DNA of 64,000 nucleotides, from positions 645,283 through 709,282 of the forward strand of contig CAZQHP010000001.1 of assembly GCA_964593805.1 (NCBI GenBank), read 5' to 3'. Positions 26,681 through 56,096 of the stretch are shown piece after piece (within the stretch, counting starts at the first letter, position 1; each line of letters opens with the position of its first letter). The DNA comes from an uncultured Candidatus Saccharibacteria bacterium. Lineage in GTDB: Bacteria; Patescibacteriota; Saccharimonadia; Saccharimonadales; JBBQAJ01. The position numbers and the translations under genes are program-made. A model generated the notes under the pieces. That model saw only the letters and a list, made by a program, of their open reading frames with translations. It made no database searches and was not told where the DNA came from.

Positions 26681-27454
26681 CTATTTCATTGTATGGTCAA
26701 ACTGCACGACTGCGTAGGGCGTTTGGCTGGCATGGCCAAGTAGTTGACCGCCTGCAAAATCAATAGCATCGGCGCCAAAGCCGCCAGCTCCTGTTGCGGG
26801 TATTTCTGTCACCGTAGCCCCGCTATATTTGCCATCTGCTGTAATCTGACCGATAGCACTCCATCCGGTGTGGTCTATAACATCGTCCAGGGTCTCTAGT
26901 TTAGGCACGTTGCCTTCGCTGTCGGGCAATATGCCGCCTACATACATATCGCCATTTGCTCTTTTGATAATTAAGCCATTCGTAAAGGTAACCTGGTTCG
27001 CCTTTGCCAGCTGTTCATTTTTATCACCCGGCTTTCCAACGTCCAGCGCAATATTACTTTCAAGATACGGGCGTATTGAGTCATCAAGTTGTTTTGGGGT
27101 TTCACGAAGATGTATAGGCACTACTTTTTGGCTATTGGTCAGTGGCGGCAACTGTGTAACTAAAATGTCACCCGTGAAGCTGGATATTGTTGTATCACCA
27201 ATCGTAAATTCGGTTTGCCCGCTATTTATCAATCCTTCAATCAATGCTTTTTCTTGGTTTTGGGCTTCATCAATGCGCTCATCGGTTGGACCTTTCGGGA
27301 TGCTATCCAAACCACGATTAATAGCACCCGCGCCCAGAGCCAAAGCAAGGGCGCCGCTAAGCCCAGCCGCTATTAATCGGCGTTTCCTGAATGTTTCAGG
27401 AGTTGGCTTTGGCCGAGCGGCGTGACTTGGATGAGCATCGAATGTTTTTGCCAT
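26681..27454 (-). CDS. secreted/anchored hypothetical protein (257 aa)
   Basis: N-terminal FRKRRLIAAGLSGALALALGAGA (signal- or Tat-like), then a beta-rich domain with no recognisable family. Confidence 0.6.
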   Translation of the reverse strand: MAKTFDAHPSHAARPKPTPETFRKRRLIAAGLSGALALALGAGAINRGLDSIPKGPTDERIDEAQNQEKALIEGLINSGQTEFTIGDTTISSFTGDILVTQLPPLTNSQKVVPIHLRETPKQLDDSIRPYLESNIALDVGKPGDKNEQLAKANQVTFTNGLIIKRANGDMYVGGILPDSEGNVPKLETLDDVIDHTGWSAIGQITADGKYSGATVTEIPATGAGGFGADAIDFAGGQLLGHASQTPYAVVQFDHTMK

Positions 27455-27463
27455 AACAGGGGC

Positions 27464-27492
27464 ATTATAGCATAAGCTTCTTTTCGTGTCAA
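27464..27492 (-). promoter_or_regulatory. promoter giving an essentially leaderless mRNA
   Basis: The - strand reads TTGACA, 17 nt, TATAAT (as GCTTATGCTATAAT), then 9 nt, then the ATG at 27454. Confidence 0.55.
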
Positions 27493-33831: not shown

Positions 33832-34254
33832 CTATTTTTTAAGAATCTGCTGCTTGCGAGCTTTGTTGGCCCACTCATCGGCCAGCTCATTCCCCGGGTC
33901 ATCATTGTGCCCGCGTACCCACACCAGCACCGCCTGGGATTTGCGGTACAGCGGGCAGACTTCTTGCACTATATCCAAATTCTTGATTGCCCCGCCCTTT
34001 TTCTTCCAGCCGTTAGCTTCCCACGCGACCGACCATTTGGTTATGACGTTTATCCAAAACTCGCTATCAGTAAATATTTCACACATCTCGCCGCCAGAGT
34101 CTTTTAGGGCGGCAATTATGGCCAGGCCTTCCATGCGAATGTTGGTGGTCTCATGTTCTCCGCCCAGTACACCCGGTTTCATATCTTTTATAACAGCAAA
34201 ACCACCCACCCCCGGGTTAGGTTCGCAACTGCCATCGGTATAATAAACAATCAC
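33832..34254 (-). CDS. rnhA: ribonuclease HI
   Basis: YTDGSCEPNPG, TNIRMEGLA, DSEF, HNDDPGNELAD. Confidence 0.88.
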   Translation of the reverse strand: MIVYYTDGSCEPNPGVGGFAVIKDMKPGVLGGEHETTNIRMEGLAIIAALKDSGGEMCEIFTDSEFWINVITKWSVAWEANGWKKKGGAIKNLDIVQEVCPLYRKSQAVLVWVRGHNDDPGNELADEWANKARKQQILKK

Positions 34255-35120
34255 GTAAGACTACTCACGAAGTCACCAACAGACGCGGCAAGCTCATCTT
34301 CATGCTCGGCATAACTATGCGTGGCATCTTTTATTAACTGTATGGCTGTGTTTTGGTTTTTAATTTTACTGACTCTGTCCACGAATTTCTCTACCGAACC
34401 GTCAACGTCCAGGATGCCTATGTCTTCTGTTCCATAGGCTATGATCGTTGGAATCTGAAGTTTGCCTAATATCACACCGCCCTTTCGTTCGCTATAAATA
34501 TCAGCGCTTGAACCTTCTTCGCAAATGGTTGGGTAAGTTTGGGCTGAGATTGGGGTTTTGTCTTTCCAGCACTTGACGCCAACTAGCTCTTCGTTTTTGC
34601 CAGCTGCCATAAGTTGTTTGGCTTTTTGTAAATATTTATGGTGGCTAGAATCAGTATTTGCCCAACCCGTCATATCTGTAGGAGCCAGAAGCACCGAGGC
34701 TATAATTTCCGGATTATTTTTGCTAACAACGTAGTTTACAACCTTGCTTCCGCCCAAGCTGTGGCCTTGCAAAATGAATTTTGTTTTACCTAAGCCTTTC
34801 AAGTAATCAATAGCGCCCTGTATGTCGTAGATGCTTTCGTCGAAGATTTCAAAGCAGCTGCCGCCATGTTTCGTCCCGTTGCCTTGTTTAAAATCGCTGG
34901 CAATGCCCCGTCCTCGAGTATCTATGGTAAAAAAGGTGATGCCTTTTTGTTCGTACATTTTCCGCAAATTATCCAGAAAATAGTTTTCATAGCCATTGCC
35001 AGACATGCCGTGTATATGCACTGCTGCCGTATCACCCGCTTCATGATTCATCCAGCCTTGCAACTCGACTCCATCACTCGCCTCAAAGCGAACAAAATCT
35101 ATCTTCATAACTTTAGCCAT
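34251..35120 (-). CDS. alpha/beta hydrolase
   Basis: Nucleophile elbow GHSLGG; C-terminal D and H candidates. Confidence 0.75.
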   Translation of the reverse strand: MAKVMKIDFVRFEASDGVELQGWMNHEAGDTAAVHIHGMSGNGYENYFLDNLRKMYEQKGITFFTIDTRGRGIASDFKQGNGTKHGGSCFEIFDESIYDIQGAIDYLKGLGKTKFILQGHSLGGSKVVNYVVSKNNPEIIASVLLAPTDMTGWANTDSSHHKYLQKAKQLMAAGKNEELVGVKCWKDKTPISAQTYPTICEEGSSADIYSERKGGVILGKLQIPTIIAYGTEDIGILDVDGSVEKFVDRVSKIKNQNTAIQLIKDATHSYAEHEDELAASVGDFVSSLT

Positions 35121-35148
35121 CCTCCCTCAATCATACCAGTTCTGTGCC

Positions 35149-35374
35149 TCAAGTTTTTAGTATTTCTATGATTTTATTGCGGGAAGTCAGGCCCCCAGTA
35201 ATTTTTACTTGTGATTTCGAAACTTCAAAATAATCAGCCAGCAGCGCAATCACAGCTTTGTTTGCTTTGCCGTCCACGGCCGGTTCACGCATACACCAGC
35301 AACTCGCCAGTCAGGCTAGTCTGCACAAAAGACCCCTTTTTACTCCCCGGCTTTACCCGCACTCCCTGTTTCAT
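35149..35374 (-). pseudogene. DUF167/YggU-family gene interrupted by a 1-nt frameshift
   Basis: Hand translation gives MKQGVRVKPGSKKGSFVQTSLTGELLVYA then a stop (TGA at 35287-35285). Shifting the frame by one nucleotide continues REPAVDGKANKAVIALLADYFEVSKSQVKITGGLTSRNKIIEILKT, which carries the family hallmarks (P..DGKAN, SQV.I..G.TSR.K). Confidence 0.6.
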
Positions 35375-35378
35375 AACA

Positions 35379-36245
35379 TTACCTGGTGTTCAAAATAATA
35401 AGACCGCTTGAACCCACTATAGCCGCACTCACCTTTAACCAAAGATGCTCATTTTCTTTAAGTATGAAATAAGCGGAAATCACAACCAACACCGCCATAA
35501 AACTGCTGGAAGCGCCAACCAACGAAGCGTTGCCACTTACCTTCAGGGCGCTGACAAAAGTCAGACCTTTAAATGCATTTGTAATCCCATAGCCAATAAC
35601 TTTATTGCGGTTTTCCTTTGTTCTTAGCAAGTGTATATATTTGCGCTCCGGCCAAGCCATAATAACCATCCACATAGTCTGCGAACCCCAACCCAAAACC
35701 AGATACGCGCCGTAATCTATACGAGTTAGCATCCATCTTTCATAAACAATAGCCAGCCCCAGTAACGAAACGCTGGCAAGCGCAAACAAAAGTCCGCTTG
35801 AAGGGTTTTTGCGATGATGATTGAGCTTGGGAAGAGTTGCTAGAAATGCTGACGAGATTATAACGGCCGCGCCTACCATTTGCCGCCCATTGAGTGTTTC
35901 GTGTATTAGCAAAGACGCCGCCACAATGGTGATGATAGGCGTTAAATTGTTCAAAATCGTGTACAAACCAGCGTCAACGTCTTTGCTAGCGCGAAACGCC
36001 ATGACCATAATTAACGGAAACACTCCGCTGCCAGCTAACAAGAAAAACATATTTAACCAGCCAACACTTAAATCAGGTGAAGAAAAAGCAGCCACAATTA
36101 AACCCAGAGGATACAGCACGCACAAAAAGAAAAAGCCATTTATTAGTTTATTATGTTCGGAAATACGCTTAGCCAGTGAACGCCGCAGCAAATATGCCGC
36201 GGTTCCCAGCACTAAATAAATCGAAATCAGTATCTGCCAAGTCAT
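35379..36245 (-). CDS. EamA/DMT-family transporter
   Basis: Ten-TM duplicated EamA pattern. Confidence 0.8.
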   Translation of the reverse strand: MTWQILISIYLVLGTAAYLLRRSLAKRISEHNKLINGFFFLCVLYPLGLIVAAFSSPDLSVGWLNMFFLLAGSGVFPLIMVMAFRASKDVDAGLYTILNNLTPIITIVAASLLIHETLNGRQMVGAAVIISSAFLATLPKLNHHRKNPSSGLLFALASVSLLGLAIVYERWMLTRIDYGAYLVLGWGSQTMWMVIMAWPERKYIHLLRTKENRNKVIGYGITNAFKGLTFVSALKVSGNASLVGASSSFMAVLVVISAYFILKENEHLWLKVSAAIVGSSGLIILNTR

Positions 36246-36255
36246 CTTGCCCCAA

Positions 36256-36849
36256 TCATACTTTGATTATTACAAATTCTTGCTCGCGAATTGTTATGGT
36301 TTCTTTTCTGCCGCTCTTATTTATTAATTTTGTTTCTATTTGTTTAACACGATTATCAGGTAGCCAAAACTCAGTTCCTTTGGCTGGGTGATAATGTGTA
36401 AATACATTTACCGGTAGTAACCCTAGGCCTTTTTTAACATTCTTTTCACCATGGCCGTAGTACCATTCGGAAATCATATGTGCTCCGGCGGATGAACCAG
36501 AAATTATTTTTCCTTCAAAAAGTTTCAAAAGATTCAAATTCATCTTGCTGATACTGCTGATTAATTTTCTGCTGTTCCCGCCAGCAAACAGCAACACATC
36601 GTGAACCCTAGCCTGATCTGCAAATTTGTCTTTATTGGCAATGGTGAAGTCAAATTTTTTGCCCGGGCTTGCCCATTTAAAATTTGCTTCATCCCTTTCA
36701 TGCAAATAATCATATTCACTATTTTCCCTAGCAAAATACACGAGTAATATTTTTGGCTTCTCAAGACCCCCAACCATACTTTGGTAATACGTTTTATTGG
36801 CCTTAGTCTGCGGCCCCATCATCCCACCATGCAAAATATATGTAGTCAT
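36256..36849 (-). CDS. peptidase S51 (peptidase E)-like / class I glutamine amidotransferase-like protein
   Basis: FAGGNSRKL and GSSAGAHM motifs. Confidence 0.65.
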   Translation of the reverse strand: MTTYILHGGMMGPQTKANKTYYQSMVGGLEKPKILLVYFARENSEYDYLHERDEANFKWASPGKKFDFTIANKDKFADQARVHDVLLFAGGNSRKLISSISKMNLNLLKLFEGKIISGSSAGAHMISEWYYGHGEKNVKKGLGLLPVNVFTHYHPAKGTEFWLPDNRVKQIETKLINKSGRKETITIREQEFVIIKV

Positions 36850-36867
36850 CTTATTTCAATCATAGCA

Positions 36868-37581
36868 CTACGACTTGTAAAACCTATCCAGCTCGCCGAC
36901 CTTCAACATGTGTTTTGCGCCGGCACCATAATGTCCCAGGTATTTACTTTCGGTGTACTTGAAATTCTTTATATTAGCTTCAAACGTCTCTTTTGTCTTA
37001 ACGGTAATTGTGTAGTCCAGAATTTTATCTCGCCGCGCCAAATGCAGCCAAACTTTTTTATTTTTCAGTCCAGCCACGTTGGCGATTGGGTCGTATGGTT
37101 TTACCGCAGCACGCAAGTCATCAACCGTTAGTCCTCTAGCCTGCATGGTTTTACGAGTTTTTTCAGTAGCCGGCGAAGTCATCATGTTGGATGTAATATC
37201 TCCATAAGTCATACACATAACTACATGTTGTATCTCCGGTGTTTCGCGCGTGAGCCTGCCCGCCAATACCGTGCCCATACTCATACCATACGTATAAATG
37301 TGCCCTGGATTTAGCCTTTTAATCCGCTCGTATGCGTCCGCTTTAACACCGTCATACATTTTGTCGTATTCCTCAAACTCCGCCTCTAGCACTAGTTCCG
37401 TAGGGTAATCATATATCACGACCGAATATCCTTTTTTATTGAGTTGCCGTATAAACAAAGAATACTGCTCCAGCCGCGTCCCCATCGCCGTAAATACAAA
37501 GACTAGCCTGTCTGAATCAACCAGCGCCTCCCTCGCCCGGAAATTTTCCCTTTGTTTAATTTCAGTCATCGCCTCAATCAT
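36868..37581 (-). CDS. alpha/beta hydrolase
   Basis: GMSMG nucleophile elbow. TGCTATGAT lies 7 nt upstream of the ATG. Confidence 0.7.
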   Translation of the reverse strand: MIEAMTEIKQRENFRAREALVDSDRLVFVFTAMGTRLEQYSLFIRQLNKKGYSVVIYDYPTELVLEAEFEEYDKMYDGVKADAYERIKRLNPGHIYTYGMSMGTVLAGRLTRETPEIQHVVMCMTYGDITSNMMTSPATEKTRKTMQARGLTVDDLRAAVKPYDPIANVAGLKNKKVWLHLARRDKILDYTITVKTKETFEANIKNFKYTESKYLGHYGAGAKHMLKVGELDRFYKS

Positions 37582-37655
37582 AGCATCTGAATTGCTAAAA
37601 ACTTGCCATTTTGTGTGTTGCAGGTTATTATTTTGCCAAGATTTAAGGAGTTCGT

Positions 37656-38183
37656 ATGAATAAAACTCAAGTGCCAGGATATATTCCTGAGGTTAGGCCA
37701 GAAATTTTGGTTGCGCAAGTTGACCAATGCTGGGCAGAACGCGAACAACAAGCAGCTGCATTTGCCGAGCTGGACGATTTACTGGCAGTAAGCGGCCTCG
37801 ACTGCGCAGCTGGGCTACGTTTGCCGCGGCATAGTTTAGACCATGCCACACACAAGGCCGAACCATTTCCCCCTAAGGTTTTACACGAAGCAGCTGACGA
37901 GCGGGATGAAGTCCTACCTGTCAGAGCAGACGAAGAAGAAATCGATCCCGACGACCAGGAAGATTGGCAACAGGAATGGCAAAAAGAAAAGCGGGAACGT
38001 GAAGCAGAGGAAGCACGAGTGCGCGACTGTCGCGTACGTCCATACATGAAAGGCTTTGCCACTAAACCTACTGCCGAAGAACTAGAACGAGCTGTCCGGA
38101 CAATGAAGTGGCGCAAGCAATCTGTAAAAGCTGCTAGCGCTCGGCGTACAACAAGCCACCTTCCATATCCTTGGCTCTCCTAA
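37656..38183 (+). CDS. hypothetical highly charged protein (175 aa)
   Basis: AAGGAG Shine-Dalgarno 6 nt upstream of the ATG; E/D/R-rich centre; no recognisable family. The antisense ORF 37667..38116 is treated as a shadow. Confidence 0.55.
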   Translation: MNKTQVPGYIPEVRPEILVAQVDQCWAEREQQAAAFAELDDLLAVSGLDCAAGLRLPRHSLDHATHKAEPFPPKVLHEAADERDEVLPVRADEEEIDPDDQEDWQQEWQKEKREREAEEARVRDCRVRPYMKGFATKPTAEELERAVRTMKWRKQSVKAASARRTTSHLPYPWLS

Positions 38184-47258: not shown

Positions 47259-47510
47259 TTACTGTTCGTAAGGCTTAGATTTTGGGCCAGGTATTGGACC
47301 ATCCATAGTGTTCAGGTCACCTAGCTTTTGCATACGCTCAACTTCTGCGCGTGTTCTGGAAATGGCGCCTTCGTCTACTGGACGCACAGCCGCATCTTCA
47401 ACTTTAAGGTGTTGTTCAGGTCCCCTGCCAAGCAAATGGTCAAATTCACCCGACTGTACTGCTGGGATTTCTGGTTGTTCTGGTTGTGGAGCTTGATTTG
47501 GGTTTGGCAT
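47259..47510 (-). CDS. small proline-rich hypothetical protein (83 aa)
   Basis: ORF with its own promoter; probably disordered. Confidence 0.5.
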   Translation of the reverse strand: MPNPNQAPQPEQPEIPAVQSGEFDHLLGRGPEQHLKVEDAAVRPVDEGAISRTRAEVERMQKLGDLNTMDGPIPGPKSKPYEQ

Positions 47511-47543
47511 TTTTTTGTTTCCAATATTACTTTTACGATATTA

Positions 47544-47572
47544 ATAATAGCATAAGCGCGTTAATTAGTCAA
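47544..47572 (-). promoter_or_regulatory. promoter TTGACT-17-TATTAT (GCTTATGCTATTAT type)
   Basis: The -35 box overlaps the TGA stop of the upstream gene. A 33-nt A-rich leader without a Shine-Dalgarno follows. Confidence 0.5.
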
Positions 47573-48744
47573 CTTGATGTGTCAGTTTTGTGTGTATCAA
47601 ACAAACCCTCGTCGAATAATTTTACCAGTGCTTTTGCACGCTCAACTATGGCTTTGCTGGTTTTTTCCCTATCCCGTAATCCCATAGGCGTTTTGGGGTC
47701 AATAATTCGGCTGGCTGTTGATTCGTCAAGCCCCCGAAGCTTTTCAAAATACTCTGCTACTTGTTCTCGATTTTCATCCGTAATAAAGGGTTTGAGACCA
47801 TATCCATAACCAAGTTCGGTATCTTCCGACAAACTTGCCCGCATAGCTTGTTCATGAGTATCAAATTGGCCTTTTCCAGATACTTTATATGGAACGAATG
47901 TTGACATCCCGAGGTCCTGCGCATAATGCATGCCGGACTGCTGATCAACGATGCCTTGGTGGCTGCCATCACCAAAACTGCCGATGACCCAGTTAAATAC
48001 ATTCCGAAAGTCCAAGTCAGCCTGGTTACTAATTGCCCGCCGAGCAGTCTTTATGTCCTCCGGCATGGGCAGGCTTTCAACTCGTTTTTGAGCGTATAAA
48101 GGGTCTCGGGCATGCTCATACAAATGATACGAAAGAGCGTGCGGAATAAATCTATACGCCAATCGTGCCTCGCCAACAGCAACCCCTAAACCCTCCCCCT
48201 GGGGTATAACAAGCTTTGTCTCCGGAACTGGGTATCCGAGATATCTGGCTATCTGGTAAGCTATGACTTCATGCTCATCAGTTTGTTTGTTATGTGTCAT
48301 TTGAATCACGTCGTTAAGACCCTTTGGCGCCTTTAGAAGCCAGTCATCGCCAATTTCATCTTGTACAACGTGAAATTCAGAGCCTGTTTGACGCGACAAG
48401 TCAGGGTCATTTTCTTTTACAAAGTGTTCTTGCTTCGGGCTTGGCGAAAAACTTGTTGGCTCAAAACCAAGTTTTTCATCAAGCTGCGGGTCATTTTCAA
48501 GTAATTCAATTGCGGACTTAAGCTCGCTATCTGTTTTTGTGAATGGAGTTCCCGCCCAGTGAATGTATTTATCTATATCCTGCGCAATGTCAATTACAGG
48601 ATCATGTGGTGCAACCTCAGCCCCTTCATGTTTAATGCGACCTACAACTGCCCCTACTATACGAGCAACACGACCACGTTGTATGGCAGGGTCGACACTT
48701 TGTTCAACAGTAGGCTGAATTGTTAACTGATTGGGTTCCGTCAT
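47569..48744 (-). CDS. hypothetical protein with atypical protein/lipid-kinase-like core (391 aa)
   Basis: WLLKAPKG (beta3 Lys?), EHEVIAYQIARYLG (alphaC Glu?), catalytic-loop-like FGDGSHQG, and an Asp of DLG exactly 18 residues later, matching the D-to-DFG spacing of ePK and PI3/4K. Confidence 0.6.
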   Translation of the reverse strand: MTEPNQLTIQPTVEQSVDPAIQRGRVARIVGAVVGRIKHEGAEVAPHDPVIDIAQDIDKYIHWAGTPFTKTDSELKSAIELLENDPQLDEKLGFEPTSFSPSPKQEHFVKENDPDLSRQTGSEFHVVQDEIGDDWLLKAPKGLNDVIQMTHNKQTDEHEVIAYQIARYLGYPVPETKLVIPQGEGLGVAVGEARLAYRFIPHALSYHLYEHARDPLYAQKRVESLPMPEDIKTARRAISNQADLDFRNVFNWVIGSFGDGSHQGIVDQQSGMHYAQDLGMSTFVPYKVSGKGQFDTHEQAMRASLSEDTELGYGYGLKPFITDENREQVAEYFEKLRGLDESTASRIIDPKTPMGLRDREKTSKAIVERAKALVKLFDEGLFDTHKTDTSS

Positions 48745-48768
48745 TTTTGTGTGTGTTTAACAGATATA

Positions 48769-48797
48769 ATAATAGCATAAGCTTTGTATTAAGTCAA
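48769..48797 (-). promoter_or_regulatory. promoter TTGACT-17-TATTAT (GCTTATGCTATTAT type)
   Basis: Near-identical to the promoter at 47544-47572, with a 24-nt A/C-rich leader. Confidence 0.5.
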
Positions 48798-48804
48798 CTC
48801 GGTG

Positions 48805-49077
48805 TTAGCGTAATTTTCTGAGCGGAGGGGTGCTGGTGTTTTCTATTATGCTACGTAATGTATTTGCCAGCATTACAGAAGCCGAAAACTTCTTTGCCAG
48901 GTGCGCTGGCGGCCTCTGTGCGTCTAGGTCCGAAACTGCATGCAGAACAGGTGCGGAGCTTTCAACAGGCTGCGCTTCGACTGGAGGCACTAAATACAAA
49001 ACCGGCTTTTCGGGGGGCACTTGCTGCGGTATACCCGTCCACTTAAAGTAATGCGAACCATCAATGTTACTAGCCAT
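48805..49077 (-). CDS. small proline-rich hypothetical protein (90 aa)
   Basis: ORF; TAATGT lies 6 nt before the ATG, so the mRNA is leaderless. Confidence 0.5.
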   Translation of the reverse strand: MASNIDGSHYFKWTGIPQQVPPEKPVLYLVPPVEAQPVESSAPVLHAVSDLDAQRPPAHLAKKFSASVMLANTLRSIIENTSTPPLRKLR

Positions 49078-49127
49078 GCTTTAACATTAACGCACTAGCC
49101 GCGGCTTTGAAAGACTAGAAAGCGTTT

Positions 49128-49400
49128 CTAGTTCAATAATCTGCCCGAACGAGGCGTTTTAGTTCGCCGTGTCCTGCTCATAATATCTAGTATTTCTCTT
49201 GTAGATAGCTCTGGCGGTTGGTTTGCCGCCAGCTTGCCCAGAACTTTGGGGGTTTCTGTAATTTCTGGTGGGACGCCTGCTGATCCGACCGAAGCCTCAA
49301 CGCCCATTGGTTCGCCAACTATTTGCTGAAAAGGAGTTTCAGCTGCTTGAACAGGTATTTGTGGTGAGCCTGGGGCTTTGTCGCCCGTGTTTATTGCCAT
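49128..49400 (-). CDS. small proline-rich hypothetical protein (90 aa)
   Basis: ORF of the same length and layout (MA.N start, Pro-rich middle, basic C-terminus) as the 48805 gene. Confidence 0.5.
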   Translation of the reverse strand: MAINTGDKAPGSPQIPVQAAETPFQQIVGEPMGVEASVGSAGVPPEITETPKVLGKLAANQPPELSTREILDIMSRTRRTKTPRSGRLLN

Positions 49401-49406
49401 AATTAA

Positions 49407-49435
49407 ACATTAGCATATTTGTGGTAAATTTGCAA
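49407..49435 (-). promoter_or_regulatory. promoter TTGCAA-17-TAATGT, leaderless geometry
   Basis: The -10 box ends 6 nt before the ATG at 49400. Confidence 0.5.
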
Positions 49436-49452: not shown

Positions 49453-49863
49453 CTATAAACCTAGATGGGATTTGATGCGGTCTACTACGTCGGCTATTAC
49501 TACTTGGGATTTGACCAGGTAGTCGTCCACTCCCAGGGATTCGGCGCGCTGTTTGTCACTGTCCTGGCTGAGCGCCGTTAGCATGATAACTTTTACATTG
49601 GTAGTTTCCGGCGTGTTGCGCAGTATGTCCAGCACATCAAAGCCGCTGACTTTAGGCATCATGACGTCAAGCAAAATCAGGTCTGGTTTGTACTCTAGCG
49701 CCGATGCCAGCGCGTCTTCGCCGTTTGGCACCCGCTTAAGGTCAAAGCCCTCGGCTTGCAAACGAGTTTGGTAAACACTTGCCAGCGCGTCATCGTCTTC
49801 TACGAGCAAAATTTTCTTTGGGTGGGCTGGTGGTGATGCTTGTTGTTCGTCCATAGTGCTCAT
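49453..49863 (-). CDS. single-domain response regulator (receiver only)
   Basis: LLVEDDD, DLILLDVMMP, MLTA, KS. Its receiver domain closely resembles that of the 5903 gene. I chose ATG 49863. Confidence 0.85.
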   Translation of the reverse strand: MSTMDEQQASPPAHPKKILLVEDDDALASVYQTRLQAEGFDLKRVPNGEDALASALEYKPDLILLDVMMPKVSGFDVLDILRNTPETTNVKVIMLTALSQDSDKQRAESLGVDDYLVKSQVVIADVVDRIKSHLGL

Positions 49864-55931: not shown

Positions 55932-56096
55932 TTATAGAGCTCCGTTACCAGCGTCTTCACCTTCAGCGGGGGCTGCTGGTGCGGCTGGATCTTCGGATGG
56001 CTCTGGCTCGGTTGGCGGCTCTACCGGCGGCATCGCCGGGTCAGTTGGTGGTGTTGGCACTACTGCTGGGTCGTCTTGTGGTGCTTGTGGATCCAT
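55932..56096 (-). CDS. small acidic proline-rich protein (54 aa; below the ORF-track threshold)
   Basis: Hand translation gives MDPQAPQDDPAVVPTPPTDPAMPPVEPPTEPEPSEDPAAPAAPAEGEDAGNGAL. GGAGA lies 5 nt upstream of the ATG, and a terminator follows. Confidence 0.4.
   Translation of the reverse strand: MDPQAPQDDPAVVPTPPTDPAMPPVEPPTEPEPSEDPAAPAAPAEGEDAGNGAL

Follow-up and report, generated by a model that had tools for sequence, protein, structure and literature searches.

What does a protein of 391 amino acids (aa) without an obvious family do in a Candidatus Saccharibacteria bacterium, and do the small proline-rich proteins encoded next to it belong to it? This question is raised by the window analysed here, a stretch of 64,000 nucleotides from an uncultured member of this group, in which the gene of the 391-aa protein, called the kinase gene in the following, is surrounded by open reading frames (ORFs) of 83, 90 and 90 aa, and a further small ORF of 54 aa lies elsewhere in the window. 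A preliminary description had proposed that the 391-aa protein has a kinase-like core and that it forms an accessory cluster with its small neighbours, each gene having its own strong promoter. The reading that is favoured after the present analysis, and that is judged to be fairly probable, is that the 391-aa protein is a stand-alone, probably active atypical protein kinase-like (PKL) phosphotransferase of a new and very rare family, encoded beside a slot in which small genes turn over fast.

Predicted fold and proposed catalytic residues of the 391-aa protein

The absence of an obvious family was confirmed, because no match at threshold was obtained in Pfam, NCBIfam or PHROGs. The structure was predicted twice with AlphaFold2, using 6 sequences (model 1, predicted local distance difference test score, pLDDT, 72.7) and 37 sequences (model 2, pLDDT 86.4, predicted template modelling score, pTM, 0.84). 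The predicted architecture comprises a disordered N-terminus (residues 1-45), a helical N-terminal extension (about 49-91) and a kinase core (about 95-380). Both models were compared with the Protein Data Bank (PDB) using Foldseek, and among the top 50 matches listed for each model all were kinases. The leading matches of model 2 were PI4KIIα (4hne, E 7.5e-5), Fam20A, PI4KIIβ, CtkA, PI4KIIIβ, HipA and HipT, and further fold matches were Fam20C and the kinase domains of mTOR and Tel1. The Foldseek probabilities of the fold matches reached 1.00, at template modelling scores (TM-scores) of 0.25-0.48 and sequence identities of 10-17%, and no close relative was present among the solved structures. 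A library of predicted viral structures yielded several best matches that are named PI3K/PI4K-domain proteins of phages. The proposed kinase-like core was thus recovered in fold searches with two independent models, which makes it very probable that the modelled fold is PKL. By structure, the nearest analogues of PI4KIIα have been described to be CtkA, Fam20C and actin-fragmin kinase (PMC3974213). This is the set that was matched by the model of the 391-aa protein, which supports the fold assignment.

The conservation of residues was counted over 37 family representatives. The candidate sites named earlier were WLLK (residues 135-138) for the β3 lysine, EHEVIAYQIARYLG (residues 157-170) for the αC glutamate, FGDGSHQG (residues 257-264) for the catalytic loop and DLG (residues 277-279). 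The β3 lysine K138 was found in all 35 representatives aligned at this position, the αC glutamate E159 in 33 of 37 (with Asp in two more), the catalytic-loop aspartate D259 also in 33, and the DFG-like aspartate D277 in all 37. D259 and D277 are exactly 18 residues apart, as had been noted. Q263, which replaces the catalytic-loop Asn, is present in 35 of the 37. While these proposed catalytic residues withstood the comparison, the His of FGDGSHQG and the Leu and Gly of DLG did not: His262, Leu278 and Gly279 are not conserved across the representatives, and therefore the real motifs are G-D-x-x-x-Q-G and Y-Y-A-x-D. Additional conserved positions are specific for the family, namely R247 and Y171 (37/37 each), N240 (34/37), K110 (33/37) and E111 (32/37). 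The Lys/Glu/Asp/Gln/Asp set as a whole is kept in about 90% of the representatives. Neither of the two outcomes that speak against a kinase, a different fold or catalytic motifs without conservation in homologues, was observed.

These residues allow a reaction to be proposed. K138, held by E159, would contact the phosphates of ATP, Mg2+ would be bound by D277 of YYAxD together with Q263 in place of the usual Asn, and D259 would act as catalytic base. R247 and N240 would probably brace the catalytic loop or touch the substrate. It is predicted from the sequence, with a confidence only somewhat above even, that the protein is catalytically active. The reaction would be an ATP-dependent phosphotransfer, and its substrate class would most likely be protein Ser/Thr, as for CtkA and HipA; by this analogy a protein substrate is predicted to be somewhat more likely than a lipid or a small molecule.

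The comparison with known kinases revealed likeness as well as clear differences. CtkA (JHP0940) of Helicobacter pylori is a stand-alone secreted Ser/Thr kinase (PDB 3akk, 3akl). Its likeness lies in a single PKL domain, in a protein of roughly 300 aa, and in the lack of a partner gene, and it was matched by model 2 with a Foldseek probability of 1.0 and a target-normalised TM-score of 0.46-0.48. The 391-aa protein shares 10-13% identity with CtkA in structural alignments, without a match at the sequence level, and it differs by about 95 additional N-terminal residues, which are in part disordered and in part helical, and by its GDxxxQ loop. PI4KIIα and PI4KIIβ (4hne, 4wtv) gave the best Foldseek E-value, and they share the β3 Lys and a catalytic loop of the pattern [IL]-x-[GN]-x-D...N/Q-x-[LI], followed by the second Mg-binding Asp. 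Differences to PI4KII are the Asp-Asp spacing of 18, TM-scores of at most 0.43 and the lack of the palmitoylation insertion, the RK-rich insertion and the membrane-binding features; no hydrophobic segment and no membrane-binding or palmitoylation-type insertion was found in the 391-aa protein. None of the 37 members matched PI3_PI4_kinase at E <=1, so that the likeness exists at the level of the fold only. HipA and HipT (3dnv, 2wiu, 8ezr, 7ab3) were fold matches as well, and their αC and G[YL]xVPE segment was aligned by hhalign, whereas a HipB or HipS partner and the N-terminal domains of HipA are lacking, the catalytic loop contains Gln at the place of Asn, and the two Asp are 18 residues apart instead of 23 in HipA (D309 to D332). 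Fam20 and actin-fragmin kinase belong to eukaryotic families. Fam20A and Fam20C were among the top fold matches, but the alignments with this group had root mean square deviations (rmsd) of 11-20 Å and TM-scores of about 0.3; one member of the family had a weak match to the Pfam family Act-Frag_cataly. CtkA, PI4KII, Fam20 and actin-fragmin kinase belong to one structural cluster (PMC3974213). The 391-aa protein is placed in the structural neighbourhood of these kinases and of HipA/HipT.

Rarity, mosaic evolution and gene neighbourhood

The family turned out to be extremely rare. Six relatives were present in an index of 5.8 billion clusters, and an exhaustive HMMER pass over 1.84 billion representatives yielded 38 clusters. 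Only one of 185,579 species genomes contained a relative, a metagenome-assembled genome of Candidatus Saccharibacteria, which is the only named carrier. Scans of these genomes, of metagenomes and of viral sequences with two peptide patterns, the sensitivity of which is limited, gave 1, 1 and 0 loci, respectively. Relatives were thus missing from viral contigs in this two-pattern scan, and they were missing from phage and plasmid collections in tblastn searches. The GC content at third codon positions of the kinase gene is 0.38, compared to 0.54 ± 0.06, and is the lowest among the 40 long ORFs of the window. The term "accessory" that had been chosen for the locus fits both its rarity and this composition, and the gene would be an accessory gene of a few Saccharibacteria and other uncultured bacteria.

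The kinase gene was compared with that of the closest relative, locus L004 (window 47569-48744 versus L004 1086-2243). The ratio of nonsynonymous to synonymous substitutions (dN/dS) is 0.25 for the whole gene. Synonymous divergence is low in the 5' part of the gene, saturated in the 3' part and intermediate in the flanking core genes (Table 1), and both halves of the gene are under purifying selection (dN/dS 0.09-0.24). The sharp contrast of dS within the gene and to the flanks indicates that the promoter and the 5' two-thirds of the kinase gene have recombined recently, the breakpoint being close to the catalytic loop, near codons 215-270. Homology to L004 at the DNA level is lost at window position 49426 and begins again at 48799, so that 626 bp upstream of the kinase gene are non-homologous.

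In the four closest genomes the genes follow one another in the same way: CTP synthase, receiver-only response regulator, variable slot, kinase and, on the opposite strand, rpmA. The response regulator gene is syntenic in these four genomes, but it is absent beside the distant family members. The slot upstream of the kinase gene contains unrelated sequences from one genome to the next (Table 1). Sense ORFs upstream of the kinase gene exceed the length expected by chance in four genomes (P = 2e-4, 0.003, <2e-4 and 0.006), the first three values belonging to the slot ORFs of the window, L004 and L008. In L006 the place of a small ORF is taken by two perfect hairpins, ccccatgaaacaggtttcatgggg and aaccagggttacg...cgtaaccctggtt. 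The more distant contexts are unrelated: a 62-aa Pro-rich ORF lies upstream of the kinase gene in L007, the gene is placed between a phosphoglycerate mutase gene and an EamA-type transporter gene in L011, and it overlaps a tetratricopeptide repeat gene in L012. In L006, L011 and L012 the kinase gene is thus present without comparable small neighbours.

A check of whether the four genes of the cluster co-occur in related genomes had been recommended, and in the more distant relatives they do not. The 83-aa gene recurs only in L004, and no homologue of w90a and w90b, as the two 90-aa ORFs are called here, was detected among the fetched loci or in the rest of the window. The four genes do therefore not form a conserved module, and the kinase has no conserved partner. 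The kinase would be a single enzyme, and not one half of a conserved two-gene system, and its gene occupies a recombination-prone slot bounded by the receiver-only response regulator gene and rpmA.

Table 1. Genes, ORFs, promoter-like sites, divergence segments and kinase-upstream slots (positions refer to the window unless another locus is named)
Feature	Position	Strand	Remark
Kinase-like gene, 391 aa	47569-48744	-	ORF list; gene call of the source pipelines
w83, gene of an 83-aa proline-rich acidic small protein	47259-47510	-	gene call of the source pipelines
w90a, 90-aa proline-rich orphan ORF	48805-49077	-	ORF list; no call in any source
w90b, 90-aa proline-rich orphan ORF	49128-49400	-	ORF list; no call in any source
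54-aa ORF, 30% Pro, between prfB and ftsE	55932-56096	-	ORF list; unannotated
Receiver-domain-only response regulator gene, immediately upstream of the slot	49453-49854	-	context gene
Kinase promoter-like site, TTGACT-17-TATTAT, TG upstream of -10	48769-48797	-	10/12 sigma-70
83-aa gene promoter-like site, TTGACT-17-TATTAT, extended -10	47544-47572	-	10/12 sigma-70
w90a weak promoter-like site, TTTCAA-17-TAATGT	49084-49112	-	7/12
w90b promoter-like site, TTGCAA-17-TAATGT	49407-49435	-	8/12
Kinase codons 1-215 versus L004	about 48700-48100		DNA 91-95%, dS 0.20, aa 91%
Kinase codons 271-391 versus L004	47900-47501 for DNA, including 58-bp spacer		DNA 57-63%, dS >2.6 (saturated), aa 56%
Flanking core genes versus L004			DNA about 70-83%, dS 1.3-1.8, aa 77-93%
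Slot upstream of kinase, window			two 90-aa ORFs
Slot upstream of kinase, L004	ORF at 699-1019 (L004)		106-aa ORF
Slot upstream of kinase, L008	ORF at 2111-2737 (L008)		205-208-aa ORF
Slot upstream of kinase, L006	9771-10000 (L006)		230 bp, hairpins only

The window is 100% identical to a part of the 776,748-bp metagenomic contig ENA ERZ27284378, and the five ORFs were verified to lie, to the base, where they had been placed before, all on the minus strand. At a distance from this locus, positions 34000-38000 are the stretch of the window with the lowest GC content (0.43-0.45) and encode α/β-hydrolase-like proteins, an EamA-type transporter and a peptidase-E-like protein; this may be another accessory island.

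Promoters and small ORFs

The claim that all four genes of the cluster have separate strong promoters was tenable for the kinase gene and the 83-aa gene, whereas the sites of w90a and w90b are weaker (Table 1). The number of promoter-like sites in the region is six and does not exceed the expectation from shuffled sequences (4.4 ± 2.4). The kinase promoter is conserved in L004 (1031-1067), and its leader has a length of about 17-24 nt without a clear Shine-Dalgarno sequence. The promoter of the 83-aa gene is a near-duplicate of it: both contain the identical 16-mer GCTTATGCTATTATTA, and window positions 47578-47537 match the kinase promoter of L004 at 90%. Its -35 box overlaps the stop codon of the kinase gene, and it is conserved upstream of the 82-aa gene of L004. 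A third strong-type promoter, TTGACA-17-TATAAT (27464-27492, minus strand), which shares GCTTATGCTAT, was observed elsewhere in the window. A distance of 9 nt separates its end from the ATG of a 257-aa ORF (26681-27454, minus strand) with an N-terminal hydrophobic anchor, the transcript of which is probably leaderless too, as judged from this arrangement.

At w90a and w90b the ATG follows 6 nt after the -10 box, which implies leaderless transcripts. The arrangement TTGCAA-17-TAAT(G/A)T plus ATG upstream of w90b (window 49401-49435) is conserved in L004 (655-701), where the body of the ORF is unrelated; w90b corresponds in position to this 106-aa ORF. The site after the response regulator gene looks like a replaceable small-gene slot. 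In the mechanism that is proposed, proline-rich small proteins with their own promoters would arise, duplicate and be replaced fast between the response regulator gene and rpmA.

The small ORFs are indeed proline-rich, as had been described, with Pro contents of 14.5, 13.3, 12.2 and 29.6%, compared to a mean of 4.3% and a maximum of 7.9% for the 40 long ORFs of the window. The disorder that had been expected was found for the 83-aa and the 54-aa proteins by the charge-hydropathy rule, but w90a and w90b are off the disordered side. None of the small ORFs contains a hydrophobic segment, and the NCBIfam and PHROGs collections yielded nothing useful for the small ORFs or the kinase.

The 83-aa ORF is a genuine gene. 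The 82-aa ORF that occupies the corresponding place in L004 encodes a protein of 72.5% identity (E 1.6e-38), the dN/dS of 0.19 between the two genes reveals purifying selection, and the codon score of the 83-aa ORF is above those of all 37 shadow ORFs. The N-terminus MPNPNQAPQPEQ (MPNPNQAPQP) resembles that of the kinase, MTEPNQLTIQP (window 47478-47510 and 48712-48744). The shared promoter and the similar first codons suggest, at the level of sequence, that the 83-aa gene arose by a partial duplication of the 5' end of the kinase gene. The 54-aa ORF, which had been called similar to the cluster ORFs, was found at its position, but it has no significant similarity to them. Its codon score is above that of all shadow ORFs, and the spacer in which it lies has 293 bp in the window versus 74 bp in L006.

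For the two 90-aa ORFs a common origin had been proposed. BLASTP detected no similarity between the proteins; weak identity was present at the DNA level. In register, 34% of the positions of the two 323-bp units are identical (z about 4), the ORFs themselves are 31.5% identical versus an in-frame null of 25.8 ± 2.8% (p = 0.02), and 25 of the 50 bases upstream match, including the -10 box TAATGTT and the ATGGC start. These data lend slight support to an old tandem duplication, which they fit without proving it, and paralogy of the pair is thus backed by the in-register identity and the shared -10 box and start, but not by the protein comparison. Three other approaches to these ORFs were unsuccessful: no significant similarity was found when w90a plus w90b were compared as a split version of the 208-aa protein of L008, none when they were compared with the 106-aa ORF of L004, and polymorphism between independent assemblies of the contig could not serve as a coding test, since L001 and L002 are 100% identical to the window. 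The C-termini of the proteins encoded upstream of the kinase gene are all of a Pro-basic-Leu type, i.e., TPPLRKLR (w90a), TPRSGRLLN (w90b), PTRPRRHDLIRL (L004 ORF) and NPLDRLQRQ (L008 ORF). This tail may represent a short linear motif, or the likeness may be accidental.

Alternative explanations and biological meaning

Several results weigh against the favoured reading. Membership in a kinase family was not obtained at the sequence level: the 391-aa protein reached 13.8 bits (E 0.046) with the Pfam profile HipA_C (PF07804), the gathering threshold of which is 30.5 bits, and hhalign with the single sequence of E. coli HipA gave a probability of 4.8%. Searches of PDB sequences with phmmer and with the 37-sequence profile returned noise (haemagglutinin, plectin, syntaxin). 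The TM-scores are modest (at most 0.48) and the rmsd values large, and therefore the sharing is limited to the core fold. The catalytic loop is non-canonical, with Gln for Asn and an Asp-to-Gln spacing of 4 instead of 5, and D259 is missing in 4 of the 37 representatives, so that the predicted activity is not guaranteed. The codon scores of w90a and w90b are ambiguous, being at the 84th and 92nd percentile of the shadow ORFs, respectively.

This last point leads to the explanation that w90a, w90b and the 54-aa ORF are not genes, and that the 626-bp segment is a non-coding insertion, a long leader or a small RNA region, which is possible but doubtful; the kinase gene and the 83-aa gene would then be the only real ones. 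It would agree with the w90 codon scores being inside the range of the shadow ORFs, with the lack of homologues in the sequences covered and of a Shine-Dalgarno sequence, and with the fact that the NCBI, ENA and Logan annotations of the same contig contain none of the three ORFs; their exact sequences were also absent from a collection of 15 billion proteins. On the other hand, only 0.02% of the dinucleotide shuffles of the 708-bp spacer contained a pair of sense ORFs that reach 90 aa each without overlapping, among the six frames the annotated one came out best for each of the w90 ORFs, and no Rfam family matched the segment. In addition, the promoter with an ATG 6 nt past the -10 box has been kept in L004 in front of a different ORF that is itself longer than expected, and a long ORF fills the same slot in L008. 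Considering the sequence features on both sides, w90a and w90b are probably lineage-specific small genes, a young and diverged tandem pair with predicted leaderless transcripts.

For the 391-aa protein itself, it is rather unlikely that an enzyme with PKL fold is present that is not a protein kinase, i.e., a lipid or small-molecule kinase, an enzyme of another chemistry such as AMPylation, or a pseudokinase scaffold. The best PDB match is the lipid kinase PI4KIIα and PI4KIIIβ scores too, the pseudokinase Fam20A ranks second and third, the GDxxxQ loop is atypical and D259 is missing in some representatives, and the L011 copy is embedded among metabolic genes. Yet the retention of the catalytic set in most representatives is contrary to a family-wide pseudokinase, the top target-normalised TM-scores were obtained with the protein kinases CtkA and HipT, and neither a hydrophobic segment nor an insertion of the membrane-binding or palmitoylation type exists. 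A HipA-type toxin-antitoxin system after the pattern of hipBA or hipBST is much less probable. In it, the kinase would arrest growth as the toxin, and one or more of the small proteins encoded upstream would serve as a rapidly evolving antitoxin. This reading is suggested by HipA and HipT among the fold matches and by HipA_C, which is the sole recurrent Pfam signal and was found below threshold in 14 of the 37 members, with 2e-4 as the best E; where members were inspected, the match always involved profile positions 15-70 and query positions 130-179, the β3-αC segment. Further hints are that hhalign pairs the αC/GYPVPET segment and the FNxLiG..D catalytic loop with HipA's FQWLIGATDGHAKN, that in 4 of 7 contexts a small ORF on the same strand directly precedes the kinase gene, that the 90-90-391 layout superficially resembles hipB-hipS-hipT, and that the locus is variable and recombining. 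However, the upstream proteins are dissimilar to one another and none matches a helix-turn-helix, HipB, HipS or other profile, each gene has a separate promoter and a tight operon is not formed, L006, L011 and L012 have no candidate antitoxin, kinases with 78% identity have wholly unrelated upstream ORFs, and no relatives were found in the plasmid and phage collections searched. The lack of a conserved partner also argues against a system of the HipBA or HipBST type. A connection to defence systems was touched by PADLOC, which gave weak matches to the candidate family PDC-M03A (query E 0.002; 5 of the 37 members, best E 1.6e-4).

It is tempting to speculate that the locus could be a diversifying host-interaction cassette of an episymbiont, although the chance that this is correct is regarded as slim. 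It would consist of a CtkA-like effector kinase, the substrate-facing C-terminal third of which is swapped by recombination, and a "cradle" of small proteins. Leaderless proline-rich proteins would be born, duplicated and replaced behind a conserved promoter, and, with the Pro-basic-Leu tail in common, they would be possible substrates or adaptors of the kinase. A role in host interaction or regulation, as proposed before, is speculation; the idea of a host interaction draws only on the analogy to CtkA and the episymbiotic lifestyle of the organism, and any connection in function of the kinase to the small proteins is putative.

A stand-alone atypical PKL phosphotransferase beside a fast-turnover slot is thus the reading that is retained. 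The 391-aa protein represents a new variant, at the level of a family, of a superfamily that is well known, and no description of the family was found in the searchable literature. Atypical kinases that are found by fold prediction are now common, and what is unusual here are the Gln-containing catalytic loop, the rarity of the family and the behaviour of the locus. If true, the finding adds an undescribed family with a Gln loop to the atypical-kinase group of PI4KII, CtkA, Fam20 and HipA. The genomes of Saccharibacteria are very small and the cells live attached to bacterial hosts, and a lineage-restricted enzyme that is under purifying selection in such a reduced genome is therefore a reasonable candidate for a lifestyle-specific function. 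The locus also provides, in compact form, an example of recombination within a gene and of the full replacement of small ORFs behind a leaderless promoter that is conserved, which bears on the origin of new small genes in reduced genomes.

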